The position numbers were made by a program, and so were the translations under genes. The notes under the pieces were generated by a model. That model did no database searches and had not been told where the DNA came from. It was given only the letters and a program-made list of their open reading frames with translations. From Chiloscyllium plagiosum (lineage: Eukaryota), in NCBI RefSeq assembly GCF_004010195.1, contig NC_057748.1, positions 20,938,774 to 21,002,773 of the forward strand: DNA of 64,000 nucleotides, read 5' to 3'. Position 1 is the first letter of the stretch. Every line of letters begins with the position of its first letter. Positions 290-63,784 of this stretch are shown here, one piece after another.

Positions 290-19043
<18,754 letters not shown>

Positions 19044-27985: not shown

Positions 27986-29905
27986 GCTCCAACCCTGGCA
28001 ACATCCTTGTAAATCTTTTCTGAACCTTTTCAAGTTTCACAACAAGTTTCCAATAGGGAGACCAGAATTGCACGCAATATTCCAACAGTGGCCTAACCAA
28101 TGTCCTGTACTGTACATTCCCCAGGATCTACTATGAAATGTATATGTCCTGCTAAGATTTGCTTTCCTAAAATACAGCACCTCGCATTTATCTAAATTAA
28201 ACTCCACCTGCCACTTCTCAGCCCATTGGCTCATCTGATCAAGATCCTGTTGTAATCTGAGGTAACCTGTCCACTACATCTCCAATTTTGGTGTCATCAA
28301 CAAACTTACTAACTATACCTCTTATGCTCACATTCAAATCATTGATACAGATGATGAAAGGTAGTGGATGCAGCACCGATCCTTGTGGTACTCCACTGGT
28401 CACAGGTCTCCAGTCTGAAAAATAACCCTCCACCATCACCCTCTGTATTCTATCTTTGAGCCAGTCCTGTATCCAAATGGCTAGTTCTCCTGTATTCCAT
28501 GAGATCTAATCTTGCTCACCAGTCTCCCATGGGGAAACCTTGTCAAATGCCTTACTGAAGTCCATATAGATCACATCTACTGCTCTGCCTTCATCAAACC
28601 TCTTTGTTTCTTTTTCAAAAAACTCAATTAAGTTTGTGAGACATGATTTCCCATGCATAAAGCTATGTTGACTATTCCTAATCAGTCCTGAAGAAGGGCA
28701 TGTGCCCGAAACGTCGAATCTCCTGTTCCCTGGATGCTGCCTGACCTGCTGTGCTGTTCCAGCAATAAAGTTTCAGCTAATCAGTCCTTGCCTTTCCAAA
28801 TACATGTACATCCTGTCCTTCAGGATTCCCTCCAGCAACTTGCCCACCACCGACATCAGGCTCACTGGTCTATAGTTCCCTGGCTTGTCCTTACCACCTT
28901 TCTTATACAGTGGCACCACGTTAGTCAACGTCCAGTCTTCTAGCACCTCACCTGTGACTATCGATGATACAAATATCTCAGTAAGAGGCTCCGCAATCAC
29001 TTCCCTAGCTTCCCACAGAGATCTAGGATACACCTGATCAGGTCCTGGGGATTTATCCTCTTTTATGCGTTTCAAGACATCCAGCACTTTCTCCTCTGTA
29101 ATATGGACATTTTTCAAGATGTCACCATCTATTTTCCTACATTCTATATCTTCTATGTCCGTTTTCACAGTAAATAATGATGCAAAATACTCATTTAGTA
29201 TCTGCCCCATCTCCTGCGGCTCCACACAAAGGCCACCTTGCTGATCTTTGAGGGGCCCTTTTGTCCTTAATGTATTTGTTAAAACCCTTTGGATTCTCCT
29301 TAGCTTTATTTACCAAAGCTATCTCATGTCCCCTTTTTGCCCTCCTGATTTCACTCTTAAGTATACTCCTACTGCCTTTATACTCTTCTTAAGATTCACT
29401 TCATCTATCCTGTCTATACCTGACATATGCTTCCTTCTTTTTCTTAACCAAACCCGCAATTTCTTCAGTTATCCAGCATTCCCTATACCTACCAGCATTT
29501 ACGTTCTCCCCAACAGGAATATACTTTCTCTGGACTCTCATTTTCTGATTTCTGAAGGTTTGCCATTTTCCAGCTGTCCCTTTACCTACGAACATCTGTG
29601 CCCAATCAGCTGTTGAAAGTTCTTGCCTAATACCATCAAAATTGGCCTTCCTCCAATTTAGAACTTCAACTCTTATATCTGGTTAATCCTTTTCCATCAC
29701 TATTTTAAAATTAATAGAATTATGGTTGTTGGCCCCAAAGTGCTCCCCCACTGACACCTCAGTCACCTGCCCTGCCTTATCTCCCAAGAGTAGGTCAGTT
29801 TTGCACCTTCTCTAGTAGGTACATCCACATACTGAATCAGAAAATTTTCTTGTACACACTCAACAAATTCCTCTCCATTCCTTAACACTATGGCAGTCCC
29901 AGTCT
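27986..29905 (-). mobile_element. CR1-clade LINE fragment (ORF2)
   Basis: ORFs with [29 protein letters not shown] and [13 protein letters not shown]. Confidence 0.88.
28688..28715 (+). ncRNA. Minimal hammerhead ribozyme motif (family A)
   Basis: CTGAAGAAGGGCATGTGCCCGAAACGTC. Confidence 0.55.
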
Positions 29906-30689
29906 ATGTGGAGTCACACACAGGCCAAACCAGGTAAAGATGTGGAATTCCTTCCCTAAGGGACATCGGCGAATCAGATGAAATTTTATGACAATTGACT
30001 GTGGTTAGATGGTCACCTTTAGAGTAGCTTTTCTAATTAAAGATTTAATAAAAATGTTTCCATCTGTGATAATGGGATTCAAAACCATATCCCCACACAT
30101 GGGTTCTGAATGATTAATCTAGTGGCTGATGTTCCTGGTTGGAACACGATAGTATTCCATGATGTTAGTTTGATGTTCACAAAACTCAAAAATAAGGGAA
30201 TGTGACATTGAGGAGTAGTGGTAGCCATTCAGATCCTCAATCCTGTTCTACCATCATTGTTTGATGGGATTGTGGCCTCAACTCCATTTTCCTGTTCCTT
30301 TGTGACCCCTTGACAATCAGGAATTTTGGTTTGCGTTTTCCATTCCCTTAATTGGACAAGCATATGGACGTACATGGAATAGTGTAGGTTAGATGGGCTT
30401 CAGATTGGTATGACAGGTCGGCGCAACATCGAGGGCCGTAGGGCCTGAACTGCGCTGTAATGTTCTATGTTCTAATTACCAGCAACAACTCAATTTTGAT
30501 CATCTCACTTTCAATCTCTCCATTTAGTCCCTATCTCTGTACATACTCCAAGACTTTTGCCCTCCTGCAATCCCAGCCTCCATTGCACATTTTAATTGCA
30601 CCATCTTCAACAACACTCAGCCCAGATTCTGCACTTGTCTCCTGTGGCCTTTATCCCCGCCCTTTCACTCAAGGTGATTGACATTCGCT

Positions 30690-30915
30690 TTTACCAATCG
30701 GTGTGAAGTGGAAGGCGGGACCTTCGTCGGAATGTGGTACTTGACGTTAATATCAGCCTATCATTGCAAAGGATATGCAGGACCATTGTGATGGATATGC
30801 TCGTTCACCAATCATCATCAAGGACGGTTGGAGATTCCGCCTTCCGCCCCCGGTTGTGGACCAATCCGCAGACAGGGAGCCCCAGGCGGGTTTGGAAGGG
30901 GTGAAGATGGCGGCG
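30690..30915 (+). promoter_or_regulatory. CpG-rich NDUFA6 promoter
   Basis: CCAAT boxes (30694, about 30808, 30861), GC-box-like GGCGGG/CCGCCC, CRE-like TGACGTTA, and YY1-type AAGATGGCGGC overlapping the ATG. Confidence 0.7.
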
Positions 30916-31045
30916 GCGGCGGCGGGCGGCCGTGCGATGGGTACCGTCAAGGTGGTGAAGCCCTTTCTGTCCCGGAACCAGAGCGAAGCCAAGCGCCGGG
31001 TGCGAGAGCTTTACCGGGCCTGGTACCGGGAGGTGCCCAACACCA
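30907..31045 (+). CDS. NDUFA6: NDUFA6 exon 1 ([46 protein letters not shown])
   Basis: Strong Kozak aagATGG; A|gtaagg donor. Confidence 0.94.
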
Positions 31046-34000
31046 GTAAGGAGCCGGTCGGTGGTGACGGGGTGAGGGGTGACCCTCGGTCTGACCCTCC
31101 CCGGCGGATGGGGAATGTTGGCGCTGGGCTGGGGTCACCCGGGGTCTGGGCACATCACATCACATCGCTCCCGGGCCGTAGCGGTGGAAGGGGAAAGAGC
31201 TGACATGATTTCATTCCTATAGCGCCGTTCACTTTGCTGAGTGAAATGGTCAAGTGGCCATTCTGCCCCTCAATAAGATCACAGCCTCCATGACCCGCCA
31301 CTGCCCCAAATCCCCTAACACCGCCTGGGCACCCTCCAAGTCTGTGACCTCTACCATCTGGAAGGACAAGGGGAACACCACCAACTACAGGTTCCCCTGC
31401 AAGCCAGACATCATCCTGACTTGGACATGTTGTCACTGTTCCTTCAGTGTCGTTGGGTCAGAATCCTGGAACTGCTTCCCCGTCGCCAGTGTGTTGTCCC
31501 TACCCCCAAGGTCTGCAGAGGTTTAAGAAGGCAACTCTCCATTCACCTTCTCAAGGACACTGAGGAGCAGGCAACAAATGCTGGCCCAGCCAGCAGTGCT
31601 CTCATCCATTGAACGAATATGCAAAGAAAATCTGCCCCCACAAAATGTTCCTTTTGGTACCCAGTTAGCCAACTCCTTCCTTTTACTGAGTGCTTTTATA
31701 AAAGGCTGTTTGGTTTTTCTTAATCTTTTCTTCCTCTTTGCCTGTCTTGGATCTCACCTGCACCTTGAATATTTAGTCTGGTTCCTTATTGTGTCATGAA
31801 CATTTTGGTATAAGCCTACATTGTTTGTATGTTTTATCTTATTAATATAGAATAAGATATTTATTTATTTATGTAGAACTTTGGCATAATAAAATGTACC
31901 AATGAACTTTTGAAGAGCCTTACAAAAGAATATATGACAGAACCACATAAGGAGAAATTATGTCAGATGGGGTGCTGTATTTTAGGAAAGCAAATCTTAG
32001 CAGGGCGTATACACTTAATGGTAAGGTCCCAGGGAGTGTTGCTGAACAAAGAGACCTTGGAGTGCAGGTTCATAGCTCCTTGAAAGTAGAGTTGCAGGTA
32101 GATAGGATAGTGAAGACCTGCAATCTTCTTCCTGACCTCTCCATCCCCACCCCCACTCCGTCCTATCACCCTCACCTTAACCTCCTTCCACCTATTGCAT
32201 TCCCAACTCCCCTTCCCCAAGTCCCTCCTCCCTACCTTTTCTCTTAGCCTGCTTGGCACACTCTCCTCATTCCTGATGAAGGGCTCATGCCCGAAATGTC
32301 GATTCTCCTGCTCCTTGGATGCTGCCTGACCTGCGCTTTTCCAGCAACACATTTTTCAGCTCTGATCTCCAGCATCTGCAGTCCTCACTTTCTCCTAGTG
32401 AAAAAGGTATTTGATATGCTTTCCTTTATTGGTCAGAGTATTGAGTACAAGAATTGGGAGGTCATGTTGCAGTCGTACAGGACATTGGTTAGGCCACTGT
32501 TGGAATATTGCGTGCAATTCTGGTCTCCTTCCTATCGGAAAGATTAGATTCCTAATATTAGATACCTAACAGTGTGGAAACAGGCCCTTCAGCCCAAACA
32601 AGTCCACACCGACCCTCTGAAGAGTAACCCATCCAGACCCATTTCCCTCTGACTAATGCACCTAACACTATGGGCAACTTAACCTGGCCAATTCACCTGA
32701 CCAGCACATCTTTGGGTTGTGGGAGGAAACCAGAGCATCCGGAGGAAACCCACGGGGAGAATGTGAAAACTCCACACAGACAATCACCCGAGGCTGGGAT
32801 TGAACCTGGGACCCTGGTGCTGTGAAGCAGCAGTGCTAACCACTGAGCCACCCACTTTCTTTTTTTTTGGACGTGGGTCGCTCGGGGTCACATAACTATT
32901 AAAATGTTGTGAAACTTGAAAGGGTTCAGAAAAGATTTATAAGGATGTTGCCAGGGTTGGAGGATTTGAGCCACAGGGAGAGGCTGAACAGGCTGGGACT
33001 GTTTTCCCTGGAGTGTTGGCAGCTGAGGGGTGACCTTTATAGAGGTTTACAAAATTATGAGGGGCATGGATAGGGTAAATAGACAAAGTCTTTTCCCTGG
33101 GGTGGGGGAGTCGAGAACTAGAGGGCATAGGTTTAGAGTGAGAGGTGAAAGATATGAAAGAAACTTAAGGGGCAACTTTTTCACACAGGGTGGTACGTGT
33201 ATGGAATGAGCTGCCAGAGGAAATGTTGGAGGCTGGTACAAGTGCAACATTTAAGAGGCATTTGGATTGGTATATTTGGAGGGATATGGGCCGGGTGCTG
33301 GCGGGTGAGACTAGATTGGGTTGGGATATCTGTTCGACATGGATGGGTTGGACCGAAGGGTGTGTTTCCGTACTGTACATCTCTATGTCTCTATGACTAA
33401 AAGTTTGGTCAAAGAGAGCTTTTAAAAAACAACTAAAGAGAAAGTAGGTCAAAAAGGTTTGAGGGGGCAGGGAAGCAAAACAACTGAAGGGAGCTTGGTT
33501 CAAATTGGAATGGAACAGCTGGAACTGGATTTCATCAGTGTCCATGTGAAACCTGAACACAAGCTGTGAAGTTGGGATTTTGTCTTCATAAGGACAATGC
33601 AGAGAGCATTCCTAACAGTATTGGGTCTGAGTGCTATGTGGATTGGTGAGAGACAAAAATCTGCCGATGCTAGAATCCAGAATAGATAGGCAGGAGACTG
33701 GAAGAACACAGCAAGCCAGGCAGCATTAGGAGGTGGAGAAGTCGACATTCTGGGTTTGGAGATGCTAGTGTTGGACTGGGGTGTACAAAGTTAAAAATCA
33801 CACAACACCAGGTTATAGTCCAACAGGTTTAGAAGGAGCGTCGCTCCGAAAGCTAGTGTGCTTCCAATTAAACCTGTTGGACTATAACCTGGTGTTGTGA
33901 GATTTTTTTTACTTTGGACATTCCGGGTGTAACCCTTCTTCACCACCTGATGCTGCCTGGCTTGCTGTTTTCTTCCAACATTCTGCTGGTCTATGTGGAT

Positions 34001-37000
34001 TGGTGAGAACAAGGTCAAGTAGGTTTTTCTCGCTTGGTGATGCGCTCACCATGTATTCCAGACCTCACATATCCTTCAGGATTCAACTAGTTCAATCATT
34101 CTTTACAACCCTTTATTCAGGGTTTGTGCCCTTTTTGTCCTCAGTACATCTTCCAGGCGATGTTCAATATGGAAGAAAAACTGATTTGTCTGCTGAGGGA
34201 GGGTGGTAGGTGGTCATCAGCTGGAGGTTTCCTTGCTTGCATTTGACCTTCTGCTCTCAGGAATCAATGTTGAGGACTCTGAGGGCTACTACCTTCTGAT
34301 CAGTTACAACTTTGTAGTCCCCTCTGGTACTTCTGTCCTGTCAGAGGACAGACCCAGGAATGATGGAGGAGTCTGGGGCATTGGATATAAGGTATGATTA
34401 TGATTATGACTGTGACATCCTGTTGCTTGACTAGTCTTGGTTTTCTACACAAGTCAGATGTCTGGCTGATTGCAAACAAATTCTGGAACTGCTGAGATGA
34501 AGGATCTTGTCGCTGAGTGGTACTTCAAAACAATAGACATTGTGTAAAGCAGGCAGGAGTGAAAGAAATAGAGCAGACGTCATGAGGATCAGATGAAGTG
34601 TTGGGATGTGGAGTGTAAACACCTGGTGTGCAGCAGTTGGACTAAGAGACCTGTTTCTGCATGTTAAATGTAATTGTTTTGGGAGATTAAATGCTGCAAG
34701 TTTGGATCTAACATTTCATTCTCTCTACAGTACAGAAATTCCATCTGGATATCTCAGTAAAACAGGGACGAGATAAAGTGCGGGAAATGTTCATGAAAAA
34801 CGCCCATGTCACTGATCCCCGAGTTATCGACCTGCTGGTGATTAAGGTCTGGGATTCTGTAATTGTGCAGAGAAACTGATAATATGATGGAAAGCATTGT
34901 GAAGTGGGAAGTTATACATAGTCATAGGGCTGTACAGTATGGAAACAGACCCTTTGGTCCAACTCCTTGCAGACCAGATATCCTAACCTAATCTATCCAA
35001 TTTACCAGCATTTGGCCCATATCCCTCTAAACCCTTCCTATTCGTGTACCCATTCAGATGCCTTTTAAATGTTGTAATTGTACCAGCCTCCACTACTTCC
35101 TCTTAGCCTGCTGGACACACTTTCCTCATTCCTGAAGAAGGGCTTATGCCCGAAACGTCGATTCTCCTGTTCCCTGGATGCTGCCTGACCTGCTGCGCTT
35201 TTCCAGCAACACATTTTCAGCTCCACTACTTCCTCTGGCAGTTCATACCGTACATGCACCATTCTGTGAAAACAATTGCCCCTTAGGTCCTTTTAAATCT
35301 TTCCTCTGTCACATTAAACCTATGCCCTCTAGTTTTGGACTCTCCTATGCTGGGAAAAAAGACCTTGGCTATTCACCCTATCCGTGCCCCTAATGATTTT
35401 ATAAATTTCTACAAGGTCACCCCTCAGCTTCCAACTCTGTAAAGAATATAACCCAAACATATTCAGCTTCTCCCTATAGCTCAAACCCTCCAATCCTGGC
35501 AACATCCTTGTAAATCTTTTCTGAATCCTTTCAAGTTTCACAATATCCTTCCTCTTTACCTCTGAGTTCCCCAAGGATTTGTCCTTGACTCCCTCATCTT
35601 CCTATTATACGCAGTCACTGCCAAGATCATCTGTGGGCATAAGGATGGCTTCTGCAGCTTCTGTTTGTCAGCCTGGTTCAAACTTCCAACCCTTGACGAT
35701 CTGCAGTTTCTTTAGTGAAATGTAGCGAAGCCCAAAGCTGTCATCTTGGAGCTGACAGAAACTCCATCACTGGATCACTGTCACCCCACTCCTGTCTTGG
35801 GGGATGTTTTCGGCTGAAAAATACTTCGTAACTGCAGTATCTTATTTAATCTAGTACTTCAGTCCCAGCTCCGTTTACCGTCTATCATCAAGACTGCTTA
35901 CTTCCACTTCCAGAGCCTCTGTCTCCGTTCCTGCCACAGTACCCTCTTCCAAATGTGACCTTTCCAATACTGCCTTACATCCTCTGACCTCTAAACTTTA
36001 GATCATCGTAAACTCTGCTGCCTGTGTTTTAACATACTTTAATGTCTTGAGAGAGACCACTGAAATAAAGTTCGGCTGTGTGAGGGCTTGGAAAAAGTAG
36101 TTCAGGTCAGCAAGACAGCATCGCGAAAACAAACCCTGAAATGAAATAAAAACAAATGCAAGGAAATGCCTGAAAATGTTGTCGTCATGGTCCAACAGAA
36201 GGAGCCTGAAGAAATTGTTCATTTCCTACATTTTAAGTGTAGACCAGTCTTTCTAATTTGAAGAATCAGGATGCTATGTTCCAGCTATACAGGACATTGC
36301 AATTTTCCAAAAGAAGCCTAACCATTCGGTCTGGTCTCCCTAGTAGAGGAAAGGTGTTGTTAAACTTGAAAGAATTCAGGAAAGACTTACAAAGACTTTG
36401 CTTGGGTTGGAGGATTTGAATAGGGGAGAAGCTGAATAAGCTGGGCCCACTATACCTGGAGCGTTAGAGGTTGAGGGGTGACCTTACTGAGGGTTATAAA
36501 ATCATGAGGGGCATGGATAGGGTGAATAGACAAGGTCTTTTTTTCCACTATAGGGGAGTTCAAAATTAGAGGGCATAGGTTTAAGTTGAAAGGGGAGAAA
36601 TTAAAAAGTGATCGAAGGAGCAACTTTTTCACGCAGAGGATGGCGTGTGTGTGGAATGAGCTGCCATGGGAAGTGGTGGATACTGATACATTTACAACAT
36701 TTAAAAGGCATCTGGATGTATATATGAATAGGAAGGGTTTAGAGGAATATGTACCAAATGCTGGTAAATAGGACTGGATTTATTTAGGATATCTATCTGC
36801 ATCAATGAGTTGGACCGAAGGGTCTGTTTCCGTGCTATGTGAGTCTATAAATAGTTAATAATTAAGTATTTGCTTGATAGTACAGAACTTAAATATTGCT
36901 AAAAGAGATATGAAGTTGAAGCTTTTAGTCTTGCTGTCATTTTTTAAAAGGATGCTGCTCTTTGTGGAATATGCCTACACCTTGCAGCTTTCTCTGAGGC

Positions 37001-38735
37001 CTCTTGCATCCCTGTGACCAATCAGAGTCAGCTTGTTTGGTTTGGATTTAATCGGTTAACTAAGACAGTAAACAGTTCCTGCCATGTATCTCCAACCAAT
37101 CAGCACCCTCTTCCCATGATGTATAAATGTATTCTTTCCTTTGTAAAAGGGGCTCTCTTGTAGCACAATGATAGTATGCCTACACCTGAACTGAGGGGCC
37201 CTGGTTCAAATCCCACCTGCTCCAGAGGTGTATAATAACATCTGAACAAGTTCATTAGAAAAGTTAGGATCCATTTGTAAAATTGGTTTTCTTGTGTTTC
37301 AGTCCTGATTGTCACATGAAAAGCTTTGACTGCATGTGCCGTTTAAATACATCAGTAATTAATGAATTGAGTATGACTTAAAATTAATCACTGAAGCGTT
37401 ACTGAGACCATGAATGATTCTACTAGTCTTTAAAATGAGCTTCTGCTAATAATAAATTGAAAGATTAGCAATGGCAGCCCAGCCATTGTGGTTGCTGTTT
37501 GTGGTGATGTGTAGACAGTGAGACTGTCCTGGATAATAATACCTGTAGGAAATGTCTTTGTCTTGAGATGCTCCAGACTAAAGCTACAAGAGGGAATATG
37601 TGACTGTCCAGCAGCAAGGTGCTGGGTGAATAGATCAGAAATGTTGTAACTAGATGTGATTTGATCATTTGAGCTGATAATGTCCTCTGCAATCAAAGCC
37701 TATCCTGATGCAAAGGTACTGGATATTGTGGTGCAAATGGAGAGGCAATTGGAAAGAGAAGGCTTCTACCTCGTTGGTCCTGATGTGGCCTAAACCAAAG
37801 AGACTCAAAAAGATCAGAGAGGTAGACCAGCAAAAGAAATCTCAGGAGCTACATAAATTAAAAAGCAGGACCAATGTCTTGTCATCTTGCTGAGGAACCA
37901 AAGCATGAGCGAATTAGCAGTAGGATCAGCAGAACAGCAAAGTGTATGTATACTGACACTATCTATTATCCTTTATGCAAGGATAAGGGAGGAAGAAAAG
38001 TAACTATTAAGATAGAACAGCCAGTAAAAAATAAAGGACAAAGGTAGAAACAGAATTGACCAATTATTTGAAGTATGTTTGTGCATCTAATACCAGTAGG
38101 GATTTACAGGATGAAGTAGCTGGAAAAGCTACGAAATGAGTAAAAGCTACAGAACAAACATGGGAGATTACAGCTAACCCTAAATAAATCAACAAGAGAA
38201 GGTAGTGAAAGGGATAAAGGAAATGGAGTTTTTAAATGATGTGACTTGGAATGGAGAACAAAAGTTATAATATCACAAGTGGGAAATATTTCAAAAATGA
38301 ACTAGGTATACTCAATCAAAACCAAGGACAAACAAGCTGATAATGAATGGCAGGGGAAAAGTTAGAAGTAAAATGAAAAGAAGTCAAACAGTAAGTTAAT
38401 TGACAGGGAGGATGACGAAAGGAAAACCAAAGTTTAGGGAAGAGAAGGAAGATTCAGTGATTATTTAGTCTCTAATTCCTGTATGTCCAAATAAATAGTT
38501 TGGAATTGATGTATGGCATGGAAATGGTGAGGAGTGGATTTAGTTTTGGCCTCCTAATCTGCCTTGTTCTTTGATCACTCATGTCATTAATTTGTTTTTC
38601 AAGGGTAAAATGGATCTTGAAGAAACTATAAAAGTGTGGAAGCAGCGGACACACATCATGCGTTACTTCCATGAGACAGAAACACCCCGACCAACAGATT
38701 TTCTCTCCAGATTCTACACAGGACATGATGTGTAA
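30907..38735 (+). CDS. NDUFA6: NADH dehydrogenase 1 alpha subcomplex subunit 6 (LYR-motif protein), 128 aa, 3 exons
   Basis: Exons 30907-31045, 34731-34846 and 38604-38735 (387 nt) joined by GT-AG introns; [11 protein letters not shown] (LYR motif), [35 protein letters not shown]. Confidence 0.96.
31965..33400 (+). mobile_element. CR1-clade LINE 3' fragment with nested Penelope-end insert (about 32117-32397) and SINE (about 32541-32854)
   Basis: [25 protein letters not shown] and RVWNELPEE segments interrupted by the inserts. Confidence 0.82.
32273..32300 (+). ncRNA. Minimal hammerhead ribozyme motif (family A, CpG-decayed stem III)
   Basis: CTGATGAAGGGCTCATGCCCGAAATGTC. Confidence 0.5.
34731..34846 (+). 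CDS. NDUFA6: NDUFA6 exon 2 ([38 protein letters not shown])
   Basis: ctacag| acceptor; AAG|gtctgg donor; hand-translated. Confidence 0.94.
34915..35555 (-). mobile_element. CR1-clade LINE 3' fragment with a nested hammerhead-bearing insert
   Basis: [20 protein letters not shown]. Confidence 0.8.
35132..35159 (+). ncRNA. Minimal hammerhead ribozyme motif (family A)
   Basis: CTGAAGA-A-GGGC(TTAT)GCCC-GAAA-CG-TC: catalytic core, stem II and palindromic minimal stem III. Confidence 0.6.
36270..36850 (+). mobile_element. CR1-clade LINE 3' fragment
   Basis: [15 protein letters not shown]. Confidence 0.75.
38604..38735 (+). CDS. NDUFA6: NDUFA6 exon 3 ([43 protein letters not shown])
   Basis: ttcaag| acceptor; TAA at 38733-38735; AATAAA at 38761-38766. 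Confidence 0.94.
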
Positions 38736-38884
38736 ATAATGAGGGAAGTGGCAATTGTAAAATAAATGTATTCCGAAATACTTCAAGAAAACTGAATGGA
38801 TTTAATTGCCTGTGATTCTAGGGATGGAAATGTGTTGCTGGAAAAGTGCAGCAGGTCAGGCAGCATCCAGGGAACAGGAGAATC

Positions 38885-38912
38885 GACGTTTCGGGCATAA
38901 GCCCTTCTTCAG
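38885..38912 (-). ncRNA. Minimal hammerhead ribozyme motif (family A)
   Basis: Minus strand reads CTGAAGAAGGGCTTATGCCCGAAACGTC. Confidence 0.6.
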
Positions 38913-40502
38913 GAATAGGGCTTATGCCCGAAACGTCGATTCTCCTGTTCCCTGGATGCTGCCTGACCTGCTGCGCTTTTCCAGCAACGCATTTCCAGCT
39001 CTGATCTCCAGCATCTGCAGACCTCACTTTCTCCTCTGTGATTCTAGGGAGTTTGATGGTTGCTCCTGTATTCCACGTGGTCTTATTACCATTAAAATAT
39101 TGCAACACACTACTTAAAGGAAATAAGAAAATATTTGCAAAGTTTTCTTAATGGCAGAGGGAGCAGTTATAGAAATGTCACAGTTGCTATGGCTCTAACG
39201 TTCTTGCCTCTTAAATTAACAAGCAATTTGAGCCTAGTTTTCAGACCAGTAGTACTGCATTAGAAAAGTCAGTGCTATTTTTCAGATGAGAGATTAAAGT
39301 GAGGTACTGCAACTATTTCAAGGCTTCAGGACTTTCTGGGATTGTGAAATGTATTTTTAAAATGTCAGAGTTAAGTGATTTTGGTCCTTTGGTCATCAGG
39401 CTGTAAAACTAATTGTTTACTTTCATGTGCAGTATTGACTTGAAACGTAAAACTTATACAGTTTATATCTTACTTAACACACATGAGCAAGGCTCAACTC
39501 TGGTTTCCTGGGAGATGTGGCAATTGTACACATTTAGTGAAGATTCACTTACGGAGGCAGTAAAGAGTCATGAAACTATTGCAAACTAACTTGATATCAG
39601 TGACAAACATGGCCAAAGGTCCCCACTGTGATATATTCTGATACTTAGTGACATAGGTTGCTGAACAGACCTCAATCTTAGGTACATAGATTATTTGACT
39701 TGCTAAACTGGCTCAACGCTATCACTTGCAAGCCAGGTAAATAAATGAATGAAGTGCCTGTTGGGGAGATGCCACCTGGAAGTGGGCAATATACAATTTT
39801 AAAAATGCACATTAAGTATTTCCAGTTTTACAAAACAAATGGAGAACCTTCTAAAGATGTGTTTGTAGGACACTGCCCATAGATGAGTGTGGACCAGTGT
39901 CCACCAGAATGATGCCAGGCTATGTGAGGCTCTTTAATGGTGATGTCAATAGCTGAGGATTGAAAAGGAAAATACGCAAGGCTTTGATATACACAATGTG
40001 GAGAAGATAATAAACACACTGGTGGTTTTAAAGTAGTCACCAAGTAAGAATTCAGAAGAAGCTGGAAAGAAGAGAATGTGGAACTCACTAGCCAGAGCGA
40101 GTGATGAAGCAAACAATTTCAATGCATTAATAACAAATACAGATGCAGGGAATAGAGGGTGACGCTGGTACTTTTATTATGAAAAGGTGGGACAGAAGCC
40201 CAAATAAATATCAGCATAGACTGATTGGGCGGAATAGCCTGGTTTATTACTATATAGCCTATACAATGTTGAAATCTTCAGTATTGTTAAAGTTGTATGA
40301 CAGAGCCAATATCACAGCCTTTCAATAACATGGCAAGAGATGGACTTGGATTTGAACAAGATTTATTGCCGTGATTGACATGGTCACAGATGGTTGTAGC
40401 TCCTTCGACAACATTGGCAGCTGCAACCCAATCAAACAACACACTCAGTAAATCTTCAGACTGAGGAGGAGACTTTAATTGCATGTCATGGGGTTAAATG
40501 TT

Positions 40503-47971: not shown

Positions 47972-48930
47972 ACATAAATGATTTGGATGCGAGCATAAGA
48001 GGTACAGTTAGTAAGTTTGCAGATGACACCAAAAGTGAAGGTGTAGTGGACAGCGAAGAGAGTTACCTCAGATTACAACAGGATCTTGACCAGATGGGCC
48101 AATGGGCTGAGAATTGGCAGATGGAGTTTAATTCAGATAAATGCGAGGTGCTGCATTTTGGGAAAGCAAACTTTAGCAGGATGTATACGTTTAATGGTAA
48201 GGTCCTAGGGAGTGTTGCTGAACAAAGAGACCTTGGAGTGCAGGTTCATAGCTCCTTAAAGTGGAATTGCAGGTAGATAGGATAGTGAAGGCAGCGTTTG
48301 GTATGCTTTATTTTATTGGTCAGAGTATTGAGTACAGGAGTTGGGAGGTCATGTTGCAGCTTTACAGGACATTCATTAGGCCACTGTTGGAATATTGCTT
48401 GCAATTCTGGTCTCCTTCCTATTGAAAAGATGTCGTGAAACTTGAAAGGGTTCAGAAAAAATTTACAAGGATGTTTCCAGGGTTGGAGGATTTGAGCTAC
48501 AGGGAGAGGCTAAACAGGCTGGGGCTGTTTTCCCTGGAGCGTTGGAGGCTGAGGGATGACCTTACAGAGGCTTACAAAATTATGAGGGGCATGGATAGGG
48601 TAAATAGACAAAATCTTTTCTCTGGGGTCAGGGAGTCCAGAACTAGAGGGCATAGGTTTAGGGTGAGAGTGGAATGATATAAAAGAGATCTAAGGAGCAA
48701 TGTTTTCACATAGAGGGTGGTACGGGTAAGGAATGAGCTGCCAGAGGATGTGGTGGAGGCTGGTATAATTGCAACATTTAAGAGGCATTTGGATGGGTAT
48801 ATGAATAGGAAGGGTTTGGAGGGATATGGGCCGGGTGCTGGCAGGTGGGACTAGATTGGGTTGGGATATCTGGTCGGCATGGACGGGTTGGACTGAAGGG
48901 TCTATTTCCATGCTATACATCTCTATGACT
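47972..48930 (+). mobile_element. CR1-clade LINE 3' fragment
   Basis: [10 protein letters not shown] motif, LERVQKKFTRM and the CR1 3' end. Confidence 0.87.
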
Positions 48931-50679: not shown

Positions 50680-53600
50680 CTGTGCAGGAGAAAACAGAAC
50701 CTTAAAACACATTCTCATGCAACTCAACAGATGTCAACTCTGTGCAGTTCCACTGATGGAGAAAGTCGTGGGTGTGGGTGCAAATACAATGTTTGAAAGA
50801 CATTTGGATAAGTACGTGAATAGGAAAGGTTTGGAGGGATATGGGCCAGGGAGATGGGACTAGTTCTGTTTGGAATTATGTTTGGCATGGACTGGTTGAA
50901 CCGAAGGGTCTGTTTCCATGCTTTTGATTAGATTAGATTACTTAGTGTGGAAACAGGCCCTTCGATCCTCCGAAGAGCAACCCACCTAGACCCATTCCCC
51001 TACATTTACCCCTTCACCTAACACTACGGGCAATTTAGCGTGGCCAATTCACCTAACCTGTGTGGGAGGAAACTGGAGCACCCGGAAGAAATCCACACAG
51101 ACACGGGGAGAATGTGCAAACTCCACACAGACAGTTGCCTGAGGTGGGAATTGAACCCAGGTCTCTGGTGCTGTGAGGTAGCAGTGTTAACCACTGAGCC
51201 ACCGTGCCACCTATGCTGTATGACTCTATGATAGAGTGTCTGTTTTGCATGATCCAAGGTAACATTTGTGGCCTATTCACAGTGGAGTCTTATCTCACCT
51301 CAGCTACCAAGCAGTCAGGCAGAAGGCATTAGCCCTGGTTCAGCAGATAGCACGAAAGTCAGAAAGGACAAGTCCAGCTCCAGAAACTTCAACTGATAAG
51401 GCTAACACTCCGGTGCAGCAATGTGGATGTGCTGCACTGACATCAAATGCCATTTTTCAGCTGACATATTAAATACCCCTTATGTACCCCTCTGGAGGGT
51501 AGGAGATCCCATGATCTTTATTTCAAAGTGGTGCAGGAAGAGCACTCTCCCCATGTCCTTGCCTCTACTACTTCTCACAGCCAACATCACAAAAGAAATC
51601 TCAGCATTACCACACTGCTGTTTGTTGGAGCTGACAGTGCAAAAATCATCTGCATTACAACAATACAAACATCTCAATCTCTTTTAAAGATAAAAGCCTC
51701 CTCTTGTTACATCGCTCTTTGTCTTTCACTCTTGGCTCTGTGTGTCTGATGCTTATACTGTTGCTGGTCATGATATTTGTGACTAACTCAGACTCCTAAT
51801 CCTTTCTGCAAGGAAACTGTGGAGAGAGTGTGGTGCTGGAAAAGCACAGCAGGTCATGCAGCATCTGAGGAGCAGAAGAATCGACATTTTGGGCATAAGG
51901 CCTTCATCTGGAATGAAGAGCTCATGCCCGAAACATCGACTCTCCTGCTCCTCGGATGCTGCCTGACCTGCTGTGCTTTTCCAGCACCACACTCTCGACT
52001 CTGATGTCCAGCATCTGCAGTCCTCACTTTCTCCTGCAAGAAAACTGGCCCAGGTATTTAAACTAACTAAATCCTCATTCGCAGGTCAGTGAGCCAGTTA
52101 GAATGGCTATAAAGGACAATCGCTACAAACATTTTCTTTAAAGATATCAGTCAGTGCACTTTTCTCATTTGCCTTCTTGGACATTATCCTTCACTCCATA
52201 CTGGAAGCTGTGGTGTTGCTACTTGACCAAGGGGTATCTGTATTTCCTATAAAGTGTAAAGGGTCTGAGACACTGGTATAGAGTATATGGAATGAACGTT
52301 GTGTATGCCAGTACATCAAGCAAGACATAAATCAGTTTTGCAGTTGCTGTAAAATGCACAAATGGACAGATCCTTGCTGGGTTCTGCTTCCACCCAAGTC
52401 ACCGTCAACTGAAATGGGTCCATTGGAGAGGAATTTTCCACCATTATATCTCTCCTAGGTGTTATGAAGATGTGGGTGTACCTTTGAGAGTTAAAAGCAG
52501 CAGAACTACTGGACACAGCACCAAGTCTTCTCAATAAGGCAACAATGTATGTAAACACTGGGTTGAACAACTCGACTAGTTAGTTGCCTGGAGATAAAAA
52601 ACAAATTCAAATTCGGCCAGTTTAAATTATACCCCAATAAAAGTACCCCATTTCCAATCAAGTTTGAATTGAGTATATTGACAATCTTAAAAGCCAATGA
52701 CACAATCCGATGTTCTGGGGTATAAGACCGGGGGGGGGGGGGGGAAAACTGAACAGTTGAGAGCAGAACTGCCAAGCCTAACATGTCCCAGACTACTTGA
52801 AAACAAACATCTCTCTTAAAAGTATCTTTTCGATCAGTAACATGTGATGTAGAAATTCTTAACAAGGAGAAAAGACAACACAGGGAGATCTGAAGATAAG
52901 AACCTAAAACTGCCTACACAGAGTCACAGAGATGTGCAGCATATAAACAGACCCTTCGGTCCAACCCATCCATGCCGGCCAGATATCCCAACCCAATCTA
53001 GTCCCACCTGCCAGCACCCGGCCCATATCCCTCCAAACGCTCCTATTCATATATACGTCCAAATGCCTCTTAAATGTTGCAATTGTACCAGCCTCCACCA
53101 CTTCCTCTGGCAGCTCATTCCATACCCGTATCACAGTCTGTGTGAAAACGTTGCCCCTCAGGTCTCTTTTATATATCTTTCCCCTCTCATCCTAAACCTA
53201 TGCCCTCTAGTTCTGGACTCCCCAACCCCAGGGAAAAGACTTGGCCTATTTATCCTATCCATGCCCCTCAATTTTGTAAACTCTGTAAGGTCACCCCTCA
53301 GCTTCCGACACTCCAGGGAAAATAGCCCCAGCCTGTTCAGCCTCTCCCTGTAACTCAAATCCTCCAACCCTGGCAACATCCTTGTAAATCTTTTCTGAAC
53401 CCTTTCAAGTTTCATAACATCTTTCCGATAGGAAGGAGACCAGAATTACACACAATATTCAAACAGTGGCCTAACCAATGTCCTGTATACAGCAGCAACA
53501 TGACCTCCCAACTCCTGTACTCAATACTCTGGCCAATAAACAAAAGCACACCAAATGCCTTCCTCACTATCCTATCTACCTGCAAACCCACTCTAAAGGA

Positions 53601-56600
53601 GCTATGTTCCTGCACTCCAAGGTCTCTTTGTTCAGCAACACTCCCTAGGACCTTACCATTAAGTGTATAAGGCCTGCTAAGATTTGCTTTCCCAAAATGC
53701 TGCACCTCTCATTTATCTGAATTAAACTCCATCTTCCACTTCTTAGCCCATTGGCCCATTCTGTTGTAAAGATCCTGTTGTAATCTGAGGTAACCCTTTT
53801 CGCTGTCCACTACACCTCCAATTTTGGTATCCTCTGCAAACTTACTAACTGTAAGTCTTATGCTCGCATCCAAATCATTTATTTAAATGACAAAAAGTAG
53901 AGGACCCAGCACCAATCCTTGTGGCACTCCACTGGTCACAGGCCTCCAGTCTGAAAAACAACCCTCCACCACCACCCTCTGTCTTCTACCTTTGAGCCAG
54001 TTCTGTATCCAAATGGCTAGTTCTCCCTGTATTCTGAGAGATCTAACGTTGCTAATCAATCTCCCTTGATTTCCCACACACAAAGCCATGTTGACTGTCC
54101 CTAATCAGTCCTTGCCTCTCCAAATACATGTACATTCTGTTCCTCAGGATTCCCTCCAACAACTTGCCCACCACCAACGTCAGGCTCACCAGTCTATAGT
54201 TTCCTGGCTTATCCTTACCACCCTTCTTAAACAGTGGCACCACGTTAGCCAACGTCCAGTCTTCCGGCACCTCACCTGTGCCTATCGATGATATAAATAT
54301 CTCAGCAAAGGGCCCAGCAATCACTTTAGCTTCCCCCAGAGTTCTAGGGTACACTTGATCAGATCCTGGGTAGATATGAAGTGTTGTTTTGTGAATCTTA
54401 ATTAGGAGTTTTATCGGACTATTATTATAGAAAGGAAGGTAAAAGATAACTAGAGAAAGAAATTGTAAGTAGTGGTTAGTTAAGTATTCGCTGTTATACT
54501 TTAAGAAATAAAGTTGTCAATTTTTACTTTACATGTTTCTTGGCCACTCAAATTTTTTTTTTTTTTTTACAGATTACTGCATGGGATAAATCTTTTCTGT
54601 GTTGCTGGTTTTAAATTAAGCAGGAGAGTTTACCCAGTGTCGTAACACTCAGAATTGCCTTATGATTCTGAGCTCAGTGGGCAACGACAAAAAAAAAGGT
54701 CTGAAAATTAAATCATCAATCACAAATAGATGTGAAGATAATTTGGTGACACGTAATTTCACCATTCCACAGTAAATGCACATGCTTCCAGGCCATTTCA
54801 ACCAGGTTGAATTATTCGACTTCAAGTGTATAGAAATGTTATTTTACGCTTCATTACTTTATTTTACCATAAGGACTGACACAAATGAATTCTGTGCACA
54901 AGGTGACCACTGCATTTCAGCAGTCCATTCTAATAATAAAACGTGACTTAGCTAGATTGTGTACATGTGAAGAAGGTGTGAACCCATTGCTTCACAAGCT
55001 ATTTTCCATTGTCAGTTCAAGTGTAATCAAGGGCTTATGCCCGAAATGTCGATTCTCCTGTTCCCTGGATGCTGCCTGACCTGCTGCGCTTTTCCAGCAA
55101 GTGTAATCAGGGTTATCAAAGATAGGTGCCACAAGGCATGAACAAATATTTATTTAAAACTACAGGAAAAATTAACATGATTCAAGAGTCCAGAAAAAGG
55201 TAAGGAATGTCAGATCAGCCAGGATCCAATGCTTCAGCAGACTCAAGGAGCCAAATGGCCTGATCCTGTTCCTATTCCTTATGATCTTATGAAAACAAGA
55301 CAGTAATAAGGTGTACGTAGTTTGGAATATCAAGAATTAGTTTCACTCTATTTCTTTTGTGAAGATAGGATGAACAGGATGAGGATTTCCTCCAGTGGAG
55401 TTCAGAAGAATGAAAGGTGACAAACAAGATGCTGAGGAGACCATTAGATTCTGAGACAATGTTGATGATGCCCCTTGTTCCCTGGCCTTTATCAAAGAAA
55501 TGTTTGAGAGTAGGGCCTGTTTATTGTAAATGCCATCATCATCAAATGGAGCAACATGCAGGATGCAGAATCGTGGCCAGTTGGCATGACTGAGCTCAGT
55601 CAGTGTCTCAGCAAAGAAGGGGATCATTCTTTTATAAGCAGTGATGGTGAGGGGCGCACAAGATTCAGCCCATCATTTTTACTTGGCTGCTCAGATAAAT
55701 CTCATCTGCACATTCCTGCCTTTTCATTACAAATCTAGATTTCCTGTTTAAAATGGTGACAAAATGTCTGAAATCAAACCTTCCAGCTCAGCGAGCAAAC
55801 CTACATCCAGAAACTCAACCTGAACGACAAATCTTCTCAAAACTCACTGTTTAAAAATCTGTTATCTCAGCCATGAATATACTCAACAAACCAGCCTGGA
55901 CTGCTCTCTGTAGTAAAGAATTCTGTAGATTCACGACCCTCTGATAAAAGAAACACCTTTTCATCAGTATCTTAAATGGACAACCACCGACACTGAGATC
56001 ATGCCCTGTGAGCCTAACAACCTCGCCTCATCCACCCTGTCAAGTCTCCTATGAATCTTGACTCTCAGTAAGGTAGCATTTTTCCAAACTTCGGTGATTA
56101 CAGGTCCACCCTACTCGACTTCACCTCCATAACTTAGGATAAACCTAATGAACCTTTCTAGCCGGCCTCCATCTTACCTAAAATAAAGGGACCAAAATTG
56201 TTAACCACACTTTATATTTCTGACTAGATTGTGGAAAGTTTGCAGCAATCTTTAAAAGCAAATTACCAAAGCTCATTGTAAGTGGTGTTTACACTGCTGC
56301 TTTTCTCGATCAGAGGGGGAGGTTGATTGCCGATGGGCTGGCACTCACTTGTAGAAGTTGTTGCTTGGTTTGTGGAGTAGTGACTAGGTGTGGATGACAA
56401 ATGCCATCTGCCTGCCAACACTAATGTAATTGGTTTCTATGAAAATTGGTGGACACAAACAATATTGCCAGAAACCTTTGATGTCTGTCTGTCTCTCTCG
56501 CTCTTTCTTCCTCTGCTCTGGCAAATACCTGAAGCAAGCCCGTTTAGTTAAGTTGTTGTAAATTTTAAGTCAGAGACTTTATGATGGGTGAACCAGTCAC

Positions 56601-59600
56601 CCTGTGCATTCTGCAGGAAAGTGAAAAGTACCCAGAGAAGTGAAATTGAACAACAGTATGTCCTGGAAAGCAAAAGAATTATTGAAGTAAACCATCCCAG
56701 TTTATTTTTCTAACTAATGCCTTATGTACAGGGTGACTTATATAAGGGATTAGAGTTTTAACTAGTAGAGTTACATGCAACAATTCATACTTGTTTTTCT
56801 GTATCCTGGGTCTACCTATATGTAATAAATAGTAACTCCTGTTACATATAAAATTTGATATGTTTTCTATTAAGCTGGTTATCAGAGGATAACTGGAGAA
56901 TCTTTGTGCTCTTTGCTAAAATCCTTTTAAGTGCAGTGAAGCACGACAAAAAGAACTACTGCCTTGTACAGTTTAAACATCACTGAAGCATAACATTCCT
57001 ACATTTGTATTCAATTGTCTTTGCAATAAACAGTAACGTTCTATTGGCTTTCCTAATTACTTATCATATCTCCATAGGAGAACTTGTGCACTAAGACACT
57101 CAAATCCTTCTGTATGTCAGAGCTCTGCAATATCTCACTAAGTATAAAACAATTTCTTTAATATTCTTCCTGCTGAAAGACACTTCATTTTTCCACATAA
57201 TATTCTATTTGCCAGATATCTGACCACAGAACCCACTTTTGCGTCAGCAGCAAATTCAGTTACCATATCTTTGATCCCTTTATATGAATTCTGAAAGGTT
57301 AAGGCCCGAGCACTGTGGCAAAACTCATCATAAGATTGCAACAAACATGAGTGAGAGTAAAGAAAATTCCTTCCCCTCTCCACCGTGCGGTAGACCTCTT
57401 ATTTTACAGCACGCCTCTGGCTCCAGATTTCGCTAGACCTAAAGACTAACTATATAAGCCATTTGCAGCTCTTTTGTCCAGAAACAAAAAGCATAGGGAT
57501 GACCTAATTGAGGCCTTTAAATTATGAAGGGAAATATCCAACACTGAGTTTAATAATTACAGAATTTTCCCAATAGCAACTGTTAATGACAATTCTTTGT
57601 GGTATTTACACTTCCTCCAGACTCAATTATTCTTCCACGATAATGGCAGGGTGGCGAGTGTTACCAAACAAAAGAGACCTACAGGAGCAGGTTCATAGTT
57701 CCTTGATAATGGAGTCACTGGCAGACAGGATAGTGAACACAGCAATTTCTATGAAATTTGGTATACTTGTCTTTAGTGGGCGGCACGGTGGCACAGTGGT
57801 TAGCACTGCTGTCTCACAGCGCCAGAGACCCGGGTTCAATTCCCGACTCAGGCGACTGACTGTGTGGAGTTTGCACATTCTCCCCGTGTCTGCGTGGGTT
57901 TCCTCCGGGTGCTCCGGTTTCCTCCCACAGTCCAAAGATGTGCAGGTCAGGTGAATTGGCCATGCTAAATTGCCCCTAGTGTTAGGTAAAAAGGTGTAAA
58001 TGTAGGGGTATGGGTGGGTGGCGGGTCGGTGTGGACTTGTTGGGCCGAAGGGCCTGTTTCCACACTGTAAGTAATCTAATCTAATCTAATTATTGGTCAG
58101 TGTATTGAGTATGGGAATTGAGATGCCATATTGGTGAGGCCACTTTTAGAATACTGCATTCAATTCTGGTCTCCCTGCTAATAGGAAAGATGTTATTAAG
58201 CTTGAAAGGGTTCAGTGAAGATTTACAAAGAATTTGCCAAGGTTGGAGGATTTGAAGCAAAGGGAGAGGCTGGATATGCTGGGGCTATTTTCCCTGGAGT
58301 GTCATAGGCTGAGGGGTGACCTTAGAGAAGTTTACAAAATTATGAGGAGCGTAGATAGAGTGAACAGCAAAGGTATTTTGTCAGGGATATAGGAGTCCAA
58401 AACTAAAGAACACAGACTTAAAGCAAGAGGGGAAAGATTTAAAAGGGACTTAAAGGATAACTTTTTCCACGCTTGCATGGAATAACCTGCCAGAGAATGT
58501 GGTGGAGGCTAGTACATTTAAAAGGCATCTGGATGGATTTATGAATGGGAAGGGCTTGGAGGGATAGAGGCCAAATGCTGTCAAGTGGGCTAGATTAATT
58601 TTGTATATCTCGTCAGCTTGGACGAGTTGAACCAAAGGGTCTGTTTCCATGCTGTACGTCTCTGACTCTGATGTGGAGTTGCTGGTGTTGGACTGGGGTG
58701 GACAAGGTCAAAAGTCAGATGACATTAGGTTATAATCCAACAGGTTTATTTCACCTGACGAAGGGGAAATGCTCTGAAAGGTTGGACCCCACATAAACCT
58801 GTTGGACTATAACCTGGTGCCATCTGACTTCTCCAGTTCCACAGTGGAGGACAGTTCCACCACAGAAGCTACCTGGATTAAACCTCCTCCCACCCTGCCT
58901 CCTGCAAAAAAATGCTATCCCTTATTCGCAATTCCTCCGCCTCTGCTCCCAGGAGTATCAGTTCCACCACAGAACACACCAAATGGCCTCTTTCTCTAAA
59001 GACTGCAATTTCCCCTCCCATGAGGTTGATGATGCACTCCAGCGCATCTCATCCACTTCCCACACCTCTGCCCTTGGACTCCACCCCTCCAACCACAATA
59101 AGGACAGAATCCCCTAATCCTCACTTTCCGCCCCACCAACCTCTATTTATATTGCATCATCCTCCGTCATTTCCACCGCTTACAAACAGACCCCACCCAT
59201 ATATTTCCCTCCCCACCCCTACCCGCATTCTGTAAGACCTTTCCCTCCGTGACTACATCATCACACATCCATCAAAGTTTCACCTGCACTTCCACACATC
59301 ATTTACTGTATCCGTTGCTCCCGATGCAGTCTCCTCTCCATTGGAGAGTCAGAATGCCTACTCACAGGAGCGCTTCAGAGAACATCTCCAGGACACCTGC
59401 ACGAACCAACCCCACCACCCCGTGGCTGAACACTTCAACTCCCACTCCACTAAGGACATCCAAGTCCTGGGCCTCCTACATCGTCATTCCCTTACCACCC
59501 AACACCTGGAGGAAGAATGCCGCACCTTCCGTCTTGGGACCCTCCAGCCCCAGGGCATCAATGTGGATTTCACCAGTTTCCTCACTTCTCCTCCCCCACC

Positions 59601-60603
59601 TTATCCCAGTTCCAACCTTCTAGCTCAGCACCGCCCTCATGACTTGTCCCACTTGTCCATCTTCATTCCCACCTATCCACTCCACCCTCCCCAACAACCT
59701 ATCACACCCCACCTCCATCCACCTATTGCATTCTCAGCTATCTTCCGTCCCAGCCCCCTCCCATTTCTCTCTCCACCCCAGAGACTCCCAGCCTCATTCC
59801 TGATGAAGGGCTTTTGTTCAAAACGTTTTCCTGCTCCTCGGATGCTGCCTGATTTGCTGTACTTTTCCAGCACCACACTCTTTATCTCTAATCTCCAGCA
59901 TCTGCAGTCCTCACTGGCGCCTAGTCGTCTGAATTCTGTCTCTGAGTCTATGGTAATCATCTCCTTTTACCGACACCAACAACCCTCTCAATGCATTTTG
60001 GTTTCCAACCTGACATACCTTACCTTTTGTTTTCTCTCTCATTCCCTGCTTGGATTTTCATCATTAAAAAAAAACGGTTAACTTACAAATGCTGCCTAAC
60101 CTACTGATTGTTTTCAGCATTTTCTCTTTAGGTGTCAGATTCCAAGCAGTTGTAGTATTCGACATTTCTCTCATGGGCTCCATTGATTGGCTGAACCCAA
60201 ACAACCAGCGACCAGGTACTGAGGCGTCAATTGGTGGAGAGCACTGTCTATCACTGCCATTACACCAATCAGCAGGGACTAATTATGATCTATGCAGCAG
60301 TTCCGCACATCAATCGCTATCAAAGATGTCAATCATAACAGCACGCTGTCCGATTGGTTTAGAGGAGCTGTCAATCTAGCCCATACATCCGCATCTTTCC
60401 TCCACCCCCTCATACTCCCCCAGCCGGATCGCTGCGCTCACCTTGACGGGCTTGGGCAAAATAGCACCCGATTTTGACATCACCACTTTTCTAGAAGAGT
60501 TAAACTGACCCCCAGCTTTAATGTGGGGATTGAGAAGGCCCCGCGTCACCCCAGCCCGCAAGGAGCCGCCGATCCCGAGAAGAAACCGCCCGACCGCGGC
60601 CAT
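50542..60603 (-). CDS. SMDT1: Essential MCU regulator EMRE (SMDT1), 99 aa, 2 coding exons
   Basis: Exon 60442-60603 (Arg-rich mitochondrial presequence ... [12 protein letters not shown]) joined in phase 0 to exon 50542-50679 ([45 protein letters not shown]); single transmembrane helix and poly-Asp tail. Confidence 0.95.
50926..51210 (-). mobile_element. V-SINE (HE1-like) copy
   Basis: (GATTA)n tail, core and tRNA-like head in reverse. Confidence 0.8.
52920..54370 (-). mobile_element. 5'-truncated CR1-clade LINE with 3' end
   Basis: [41 protein letters not shown]. Confidence 0.88.
57778..58090 (+). mobile_element. Near full-length tRNA-derived V-SINE (HE1-like) with (TAATC)n tail, nested in a CR1 fragment
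   Basis: Pol III A box (TGGCACAGTGG) and B box (GGTTCAATTCCC); V-domain core TGTGTGGAGTTTGCACATTCTCCCCGTGTCTGCGTGGG; CR1-like 3' tail. Confidence 0.88.
58880..59920 (+). mobile_element. Penelope-like element 3' remnant (GIY-YIG) ending in a hammerhead-bearing terminal repeat
   Basis: FTCTS / [18 protein letters not shown] / RFREHL / PVAEHFNS / [10 protein letters not shown], followed by CTGATGAAGGGC at 59800. Confidence 0.8.
60442..60603 (-). CDS. SMDT1: SMDT1 exon 1
   Basis: aagATGG Kozak; AAG|gtgagc donor on the minus strand. Confidence 0.93.
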
Positions 60604-63745: not shown

Positions 63746-63784
63746 TATATATCAACAAACGTTAAAAGAGTCTTTTGTCTCAGT

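Follow-up and report, generated by a model that had tools for sequence, protein, structure and literature searches.

Dispersed through a 64,000-nt stretch of the genome of the shark Chiloscyllium plagiosum (contig NC_057748.1 of assembly GCF_004010195.1, positions 20,938,774 to 21,002,773; hereafter the window, in whose numbering all positions are given) are short inserts that bear a hammerhead ribozyme motif, here called family A. A first-pass annotation had read them as a separate, non-autonomous retroelement centred on the ribozyme, which raises the question of what these inserts are and how they were made. Judged from its sequence, family A is the pseudo-long terminal repeat (pseudo-LTR) of a coding, endonuclease-positive (EN+) Penelope-like element (PLE). 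It is probable that the inserts are end pieces of the pseudo-LTR of such an element, likely of the Neptune type, and that the short ones are cDNAs which the element's own protein made by run-off, from internal start sites back to the RNA's 5′ end.

The pattern CTGANGANGGGC-N4-GCCCGAAA occurs exactly at 28688, 32273 and 35132 on the plus strand and at 38912 on the minus strand, and the same pattern is found with three mismatches at 51910 (minus), 55023 (plus) and 59800 (plus). These four exact and three decayed matches, at the positions claimed for them, compare with 0.03 expected by chance, and seven were reached in none of 100 shuffles. Self-BLAST of the window resolves the family into nine arms at seven loci, six of which lie between target-site duplications (TSDs) of 7-16 bp. 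The four TSDs named in the annotation (28678/28777, 35088/35221, 38810/39036 and 55018/55098) are all exact, with lengths of 12, 16, 15 and 12 bp, and enclose inserts of 87, 117, 211 and 68 bp; two more were found, one of 7 bp at 32108/32396 and one of 14 bp with a single mismatch at 51806/52034. The TSDs are not AT-rich. Three of the six TSD-flanked inserts (28678, 32108 and 35088) are true insertions, since paralogous copies of the host long interspersed nuclear element (LINE) within the window hold the TSD once and without the insert; the other three have no paralog within the window. The view that family A is carried by retrotransposed insertions thus stands on both TSDs and empty sites, and its proposed high copy number is borne out by thousands of contigs in public data.

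The connection to a coding element comes from the copy at 59800, which is not tiny as had been supposed: it is the 3′ end of a PLE remnant of ~1.07 kb and runs on for ~940 bp upstream into a frameshifted open reading frame (ORF). The insert at 32108 is collinear with the 3′ untranslated region (3′UTR) of this long copy (58860-59924) over 281 columns at 73% identity, and the insert at 35088 begins upstream of the hammerhead. Together these three observations identify family A as the coding element's pseudo-LTR, so the link to Penelope-like terminal repeats drawn in the annotation was right. The hammerhead at 59800 lies ~200 bp after the endonuclease remnant, which places the pseudo-LTR downstream of the ORF.

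In a protein search, a 69-aa thumb stretch (58908-59114) matched five proteins among nine candidates; the best three are Chiloscyllium punctatum proteins with 76-81% identity and reverse transcriptase (RT) and/or GIY-YIG domains. A tblastn search with the closest relative, P0001, covered 58908-59691 (E values of 1e-31 and 6e-25). P0001 has a CX4CX2C linker (residue 317) ahead of a GIY-YIG domain with CCHH residues, which matches the Pfam GIY-YIG family at E 2.5e-4, just below the gathering score, and its endonuclease aligns to the remnant at 59270-59590; by itself the endonuclease stretch of the window has no Pfam match. The window copy is truncated within the RT end, and the PLE-type RT is represented by its relatives P0002, P0003 and P0006, which carry RVT_1 and the DKG motif and match the window thumb at 69-78%. 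Among the 150 phmmer matches listed for the endonuclease stretch, 57 have the GIY..CxxC..YIG pattern, and the RT-EN linker is present in 17 of the 40 long-enough sequences among the matches listed. Word-index protein searches with the endonuclease stretch returned 122 and 3 candidates, none of them significant, and ESM Atlas gave no usable match.

The element is likely of the Neptune type, a placement suggested by the CX2-5CxxC zinc finger in the linker of P0001; the corresponding stretch is deleted in the window copy. By the clade traits given in PMC8557442, Penelope and Poseidon are without the CX2-5CxxC finger; Nematis also has a linker motif. An ORF start within the pseudo-LTR, through whose tail one frame is open, was considered and not established, as P0006 shows no match to the pseudo-LTR copies at its N terminus. 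At 58830-58865 the 5′ end of the long copy is rearranged, with a short, partly inverted piece resembling 58955-58975, and abuts a palindrome of a second hammerhead family; this rearrangement is possibly a template jump.

The ends of the inserts bear on how they arose. With the A at 32269 numbered +1, three arms end at +92/+93 (site A), four at ~+130 (the tail end) and one at ~+79, with one not resolved. The 37 bp between the two main 3′ sites form a tail that is present in four of nine arms. One arm begins exactly at +1 (38916), two begin at +1 within microhomology (28690 and 51914) and three at +8 to +12; three extend further upstream, to -24, -154 and ~-940. At five of six 3′ junctions there are 2-3 nt in common with the continuation of the element. 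Inverted arms occur at two of the seven loci; in each of these head-to-head units the tail end is reached by the direct arm alone. Identity among the young arms (35104, 38916, 38917 and 55030) is 97-99%, and the family comprises at least one older and one younger subfamily. The tail end itself (39021-39035 and equivalents) is a pyrimidine run followed by TAG and resembles a 3′ splice site.

Boundaries were also sought genome-wide by aligning public contig sets (X1 and X9) and RNA reads (X21) to 32075-32440 at 80% likeness. The numbers of contigs aligned (129,414 and 90,795) are not copy numbers, as they include LINE flanks and unitig fragments, and joints that skip the insert belong to other host-LINE copies rather than to empty alleles of the 32108 locus. 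Contigs that leave the reference at 32395-32397 into unrelated flanks number 3,184 in X1 and 2,660 in X9 (agreement 0.33-0.34), and 572 contigs of X9 begin at 32269 with unrelated flanks (agreement 0.31). RNA depth in X21 rises ~3.5-fold at the same place, from ~350 in the bin 32257-32269 to ~1,220 in the bin 32270-32282. The sequence there, TCA+1TTC, matches an initiator consensus, and we infer that 32269 is the transcription start. A spliced exon was rejected as the cause of the 5′ hotspot, since the site is not preceded by an AG and in X9 the flanks upstream are mutually unrelated.

We propose that transcription would start at this initiator-like A, on the 5′ edge of the hammerhead, and that the RT/GIY-YIG protein would nick its target with the 7-16 bp stagger seen in the TSDs. 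By analogy with in vitro work on an anole PLE, reverse transcription would then be primed internally at ~+92 or ~+130, where the inserts end, and the 37 bp between the two start sites would become the optional tail. On a transcript that begins at +1 the RT could copy at most 92-130 nt, giving the short stubs; a read-through transcript, with the ORF before the downstream pseudo-LTR, would give the longer 5′-truncated copies (117, 281 and ~1070 bp). The template would be uncleaved RNA, because all nine arms span the predicted scissile site (deleted later in one of them). Head-to-head units would form through priming of both target strands, one from each start site, followed by joining of the cDNAs 3′ end to 3′ end. 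Simple fold-back was rejected for these units: the direct arm is 37 bp longer at its 3′ end than the inverted arm it would copy, so that two priming events fit better, in agreement with the cutting and extension of both strands observed in vitro (PMC11167929).

Several observations weigh against this account. The remnant in the window has lost the linker zinc finger, the ORF-linked copy, 73-80% identical to the young arms, belongs to an older subfamily, and none of the young copies seen is a full-length element. At the 3′ junction of the direct arm at 39036 there is no microhomology. No position at which many molecules begin or end is apparent in X21, and no 5′ RNA end was observed. Moreover, part of the rise in depth at 32269 is an artefact of the reference: just upstream, the sequence of a second subfamily departs from it, and the loose-end consensus of X21 at this position (264 reads, agreement 0.43) resembles that subfamily. 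Position 32269 is not among the six rows listed for X1, and the genome-wide 3′-end data bear on the tail end rather than on site A, with a reference that has a 3-nt deletion nearby.

The 5′ hotspot could instead be set by the endonuclease, cutting or resolving cDNA at the ATT of stem I, or by drop-off of the RT at the hammerhead, rather than by an RNA 5′ end. We consider this doubtful: an RT that reads its RNA template 3′ to 5′ should stall before a helix and not after its last base, stem I is itself feeble and not formed in the predicted fold (see below), and the site matches the initiator consensus. It does draw support from the three arms that begin inside the core or at stem II, and from the anole PLE endonuclease, which prefers 5′-ATT-3′ downstream of the ORF-pseudo-LTR junction (PMC11167929), as the boundary here also reads ATT.

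Since the same sequence forms the 3′ end of an ORF-bearing PLE (58860-59924), the data do not support a separate ribozyme-centred family. A separate non-autonomous family of some other kind may still exist: a ~130-bp size class and a 5′ hotspot are present genome-wide, and the ends vary widely in the window. A ~130-bp stub carrying the initiator, possibly an internal promoter and both RT starts might propagate itself through remobilisation in trans, which amounts to the annotation's idea minus the ribozyme as driver. Pieces of ~32268-32396 make up 14 of 16 rows among the longest pieces listed in the public data, copies with upstream sequence are far fewer than those over the hammerhead-tail region, and reads in X21 are ~1.5-2.4 times more numerous in the direction that the element's sense strand would give; non-autonomous PLE derivatives have also been described (MRC1 in PMC8557442; retrozymes in 10.64898/2026.07.22.740005). 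Nevertheless, run-off on the autonomous transcript yields the same size class without an extra assumption, and young arm 35104 extends to 24 bp upstream of +1, which means that upstream sequence was present in at least one young source. Of the RNA signals, the best defined (196 reads at 32394, agreement 0.84, with an AATAAA-bearing flank after it) resembles a single copy within a host transcript. We therefore regard self-propagating stubs as unlikely and prefer run-off cDNAs of the coding PLE. A literature search that left out most subscription journals, Repbase, Dfam and supplementary files turned up neither a description of this shark family nor a run-off model of stub formation.

What, then, is the role of the hammerhead? 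As the annotation had recognised, the motif is of the kind known from PLE terminal repeats, with a CUGANGA/GAAA/UH core and a palindromic ACGU stem III, and by its layout (core, bulged A, 4-bp stem II, palindrome, G10.1-C11.1 present) it is a minimal type I hammerhead (min-HHR). Cleavage is predicted after C17 (32300), leaving 32301 as the first base after the cut. All invariant bases are present in four of nine arms, three of which also keep the palindrome. The CUGA core is wholly absent from three arms, and the ribozyme is thus dispensable for insertion. Stem I is weak (C-G, U-A, U-U, A-U), falls short of 4-5 bp and is absent from the predicted minimum free energy (MFE) structure.

Within the inserted copies, moreover, the motif has not been preserved better than its flank. 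Across the nine arms of the window, mismatches fill 25 of 292 cells in the motif block against 48 of 494 in the downstream flank, with CpG decay prominent, and compensatory changes number zero; a core no more conserved than its flank and a lack of covariation are two outcomes that the annotation itself had named as contrary to its reading. Its statement that stem II pairing is kept while the loop varies describes the four best copies, but three older arms have changes in stem II (disrupting in two, two G-U wobbles in one, none compensatory). The covariance-model check it had suggested gave no support either, as none of the six Rfam matches in the window at E<=1 is to a hammerhead family. We propose that the hammerheads of inserted copies decay neutrally. 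In the 40 of 118 substitution rows listed for the public contigs, the motif is changed at N7, in loop II and at the CpG that is altered in the reference itself, a pattern that fits selection on source elements. The viral and metagenome contigs scanned contained no match to the exact pattern.

Cofolding of two copies gives an intermolecular helix of 6 bp over the palindrome (MFE -21.9 kcal/mol), and an alternative with helix II and a 4-bp helix III lies at -18.9; these are predicted pairings and say nothing on activity. The hammerhead is predicted to be functional solely in dimeric form and to matter for source elements; dimer cleavage, the subject of Lunse et al., is summarised in PMC6765202. 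Self-BLAST of the window found no same-strand tandem at any family A locus, and hence no locus offers a local dimer.

For retrozymes an origin from RNA that was cleaved by the hammerhead or circularised has been proposed; for the stubs it is highly improbable. The cleavage site is the starting point of none of the nine arms, no head-to-tail tandem is present in the window, and X21 has no pile-up of RNA ends at 32300/32301. The evidence in favour consists of joints: the best-supported opposite-strand joint among those listed connects 32269 (+1) to 32301 (9 contigs in X1 and 5 in X9), and a second joint to 32301, from 32399, is also listed, its kind not given. The first of these has a 2-nt ambiguity in X9, so that microhomology could account for it, and its 14 contigs are a tiny part of the aligned total. 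That one class of joints should fall on the predicted cleavage site is a weak hint of cutting in vivo, to be treated as a lead only.

Features of the family A loci in the window (positions of the 64,000-nt stretch; offsets relative to 32269 as +1)
Feature	Position	Strand	Description
Initiator-like A	32269..32269	+	TCA+1TTC; 5′ end of stem I; 5′ boundaries in public contigs cluster here
Stub 1	28678..28788	+	12-bp TSD (28678-28689, 28777-28788); 87-bp insert; core intact; empty site at 54112; 5′ join fits 6/7 microhomology, target end versus element start
Stub 1 end	site A, +93, no tail	+	Sits in LINE ~2.1 kb upstream of NDUFA6-like ATG
Stub 2	32108..32402	+	7-bp TSD; 281-bp insert; 154 bp of PLE 3′UTR, hammerhead and full tail; in LINE within intron 1 of NDUFA6-like gene; empty sites at 48289 and 53563
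Stub 2 hammerhead	C3 32273, C17 32300	+	Stem III palindrome altered by CpG decay
Stub 3	35088..35236	+	16-bp TSD; 117-bp insert; begins 24 bp upstream of +1; motif intact; ends at site A; young subfamily; in LINE within intron 2 of NDUFA6-like gene; empty site at 26984
Locus 4 inverted arm	38825..38916	-	Exactly +1 to +92; motif intact; no tail; unit has 15-bp TSD (38810-38824, 39036-39050), ~75 bp past NDUFA6-like stop codon
Locus 4 direct arm	38917..39035	+	+12 to ~+130; without CUGA core; 37-bp tail 38999-39035
Locus 5	51806..52047		Older head-to-head unit; 14-bp TSD with one mismatch; inverted arm ~51820-51914 (core with U4A and G12A); direct arm ~51913-52033 with tail; arms joined over ATGA microhomology
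Stub 6	55018..55109	+	12-bp TSD; 68-bp insert; +12 to ~+79; without CUGA core; no tail; young subfamily
PLE ORF remnant	58860..59595	+	Frameshifted; RT end, thumb, linker (zinc-finger part deleted), GIY-YIG with CCHH
3′UTR/pseudo-LTR of long copy	59596..59924	+	Dead hammerhead at 59800 (G12A, cleavage site deleted); tail; no TSD found for the long copy (58860-59924)

Loci 2 to 4 lie in and around a gene that we take, from its motifs, to encode an NDUFA6-like LYR protein; exon 2 matches Pfam Complex1_LYR (E 4e-4), and exons lie near 30907-31045, 34730-34843 and 38604-38735. The annotation had spoken of insertion into introns, which holds for the two inserts within this gene (stubs 2 and 3), with no intronic placement shown for the other five loci. 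An AATAAA at ~38762 precedes the head-to-head unit of locus 4 (a hairpin of ~80 bp) and an ATTAAA near 39092 follows it; the unit may or may not lie in the 3′UTR of the gene. The same-strand hammerheads at 32273 and 35132, 2.86 kb apart in introns 1 and 2, flank exon 2, and their stem III halves could pair (with one G-U). A heterodimer in cis within the pre-mRNA is conceivable but unlikely, given the weak stem I and splicing.

Other hammerhead-bearing sequences are found nearby. A second palindromic family (17609-17790, 33757-33915, 58672-58830 and 60889-60961) has stem II of the GGAGC/GCUCC type, an AGCU palindrome and a ~35-bp tail on one arm only; its stems II and III differ from those of family A yet can pair, so covariation is seen between families and not within family A. 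A third family, related to family A, is represented by a head-to-head unit with a GGGU/ACCC stem II at 33700-33990. A second-family insertion with a ~12-bp TSD splits this unit inside its hammerhead motif, in the stretch that separates stem II from the cleavage site. Elsewhere, the window contains exons of an MCM helicase gene, presumably MCM5, at 13581-16700 (Pfam MCM, E 6e-23, and MCM_lid), broken retroviral envelope fragments on the minus strand at 62200-63750 (Pfam TLV_coat, E 5e-9) and an assembly gap of 796 N at 44300-45095.

The element itself is ordinary, one more shark family of hammerhead-bearing PLEs. Open questions in PLE biology include how reverse transcription starts, why inverted ends form and whether minimal hammerheads cut in vivo, and thousands of young, TSD-bounded insertions make such questions countable from an assembly alone. 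We tentatively suggest, as a possibility with the odds against it, that the thousands of stub junctions document, in fossil form, where PLE RNAs end in vivo: with a capped start at the first base of the hammerhead, RT starts at ~+92 and ~+130, priming on two strands and a minority of cDNAs ending exactly at the scissile bond, with the 130-bp stub perhaps also remobilising itself as the smallest non-autonomous PLE. If this were true, the cDNAs that end at the scissile bond would testify, at the genomic level, to cutting in vivo by a minimal PLE hammerhead.

Among known systems, the min-HHRs that metazoan PLEs carry in their pseudo-LTRs (Cervera and De la Pena 2014, PMC4209133) share with family A the core, the bulged nucleotide and the palindromic stem III. 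Helix II has 4 bp in family A against 7-8 bp in the S. mansoni families of that paper, and helix I has 2 bp, a U-U and 1 bp against 4-5 bp; the text consulted mentions no shark family. The animal non-LTR retrozymes (Li, Clavereau, Pollet 2026, 10.64898/2026.07.22.740005), for which the available text gives one chondrichthyan genome as sampled, are likewise non-coding, hammerhead-bearing and related to PLE pseudo-LTRs. They form head-to-tail tandems with at least two complete hammerheads, however, whereas family A copies are dispersed, TSD-flanked and single or head-to-head, with no tandem copy in the self-BLAST of the window.

The canonical insertion units of EN+ PLEs and the Neptune clade, as described by Arkhipova et al. 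2013 (PMC3846280) and Craig et al. 2021 (PMC8557442), offer closer parallels. Shared features are the C-terminal GIY-YIG with CCHH, the CX2-5CxxC linker (here in the nearest relative), heavy 5′ truncation, an adjacent inverted 5′-truncated copy, palindromic junctions, TSDs of variable length and a 30-40-bp tail at one end only, which is optional (see also PMC2377424). Unlike these units, those of family A measure 68-281 bp and are mostly without an ORF. The same two accounts attribute palindromes to self-priming and the tail to resolution by the endonuclease; the asymmetric arms described here fit two independent primings better. In the available account of D. virilis Penelope, the pseudo-LTR contains an internal promoter (PMC2377424).

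An experimental parallel is the Anolis carolinensis Poseidon element PAc (Frangieh et al. 2024, PMC11167929). PAc belongs to the Penelope/Poseidon clade, has no linker zinc finger, prefers AT-rich ATT targets and primes without homology, unlike family A, whose TSDs lack AT-richness and whose 3′ junctions have, in five of six cases, 2-3 nt in common with the element. The available text on PAc reports no RNA-seq ends at the hammerhead cleavage site, and likewise none were piled up in X21. As proposed for family A, the tail of PAc is defined by two adjacent internal RT starts, located downstream of the hammerhead by ~100 nt. The target is nicked and extended on both strands, and unprocessed RNA serves as the template, as we propose for the family A inserts.

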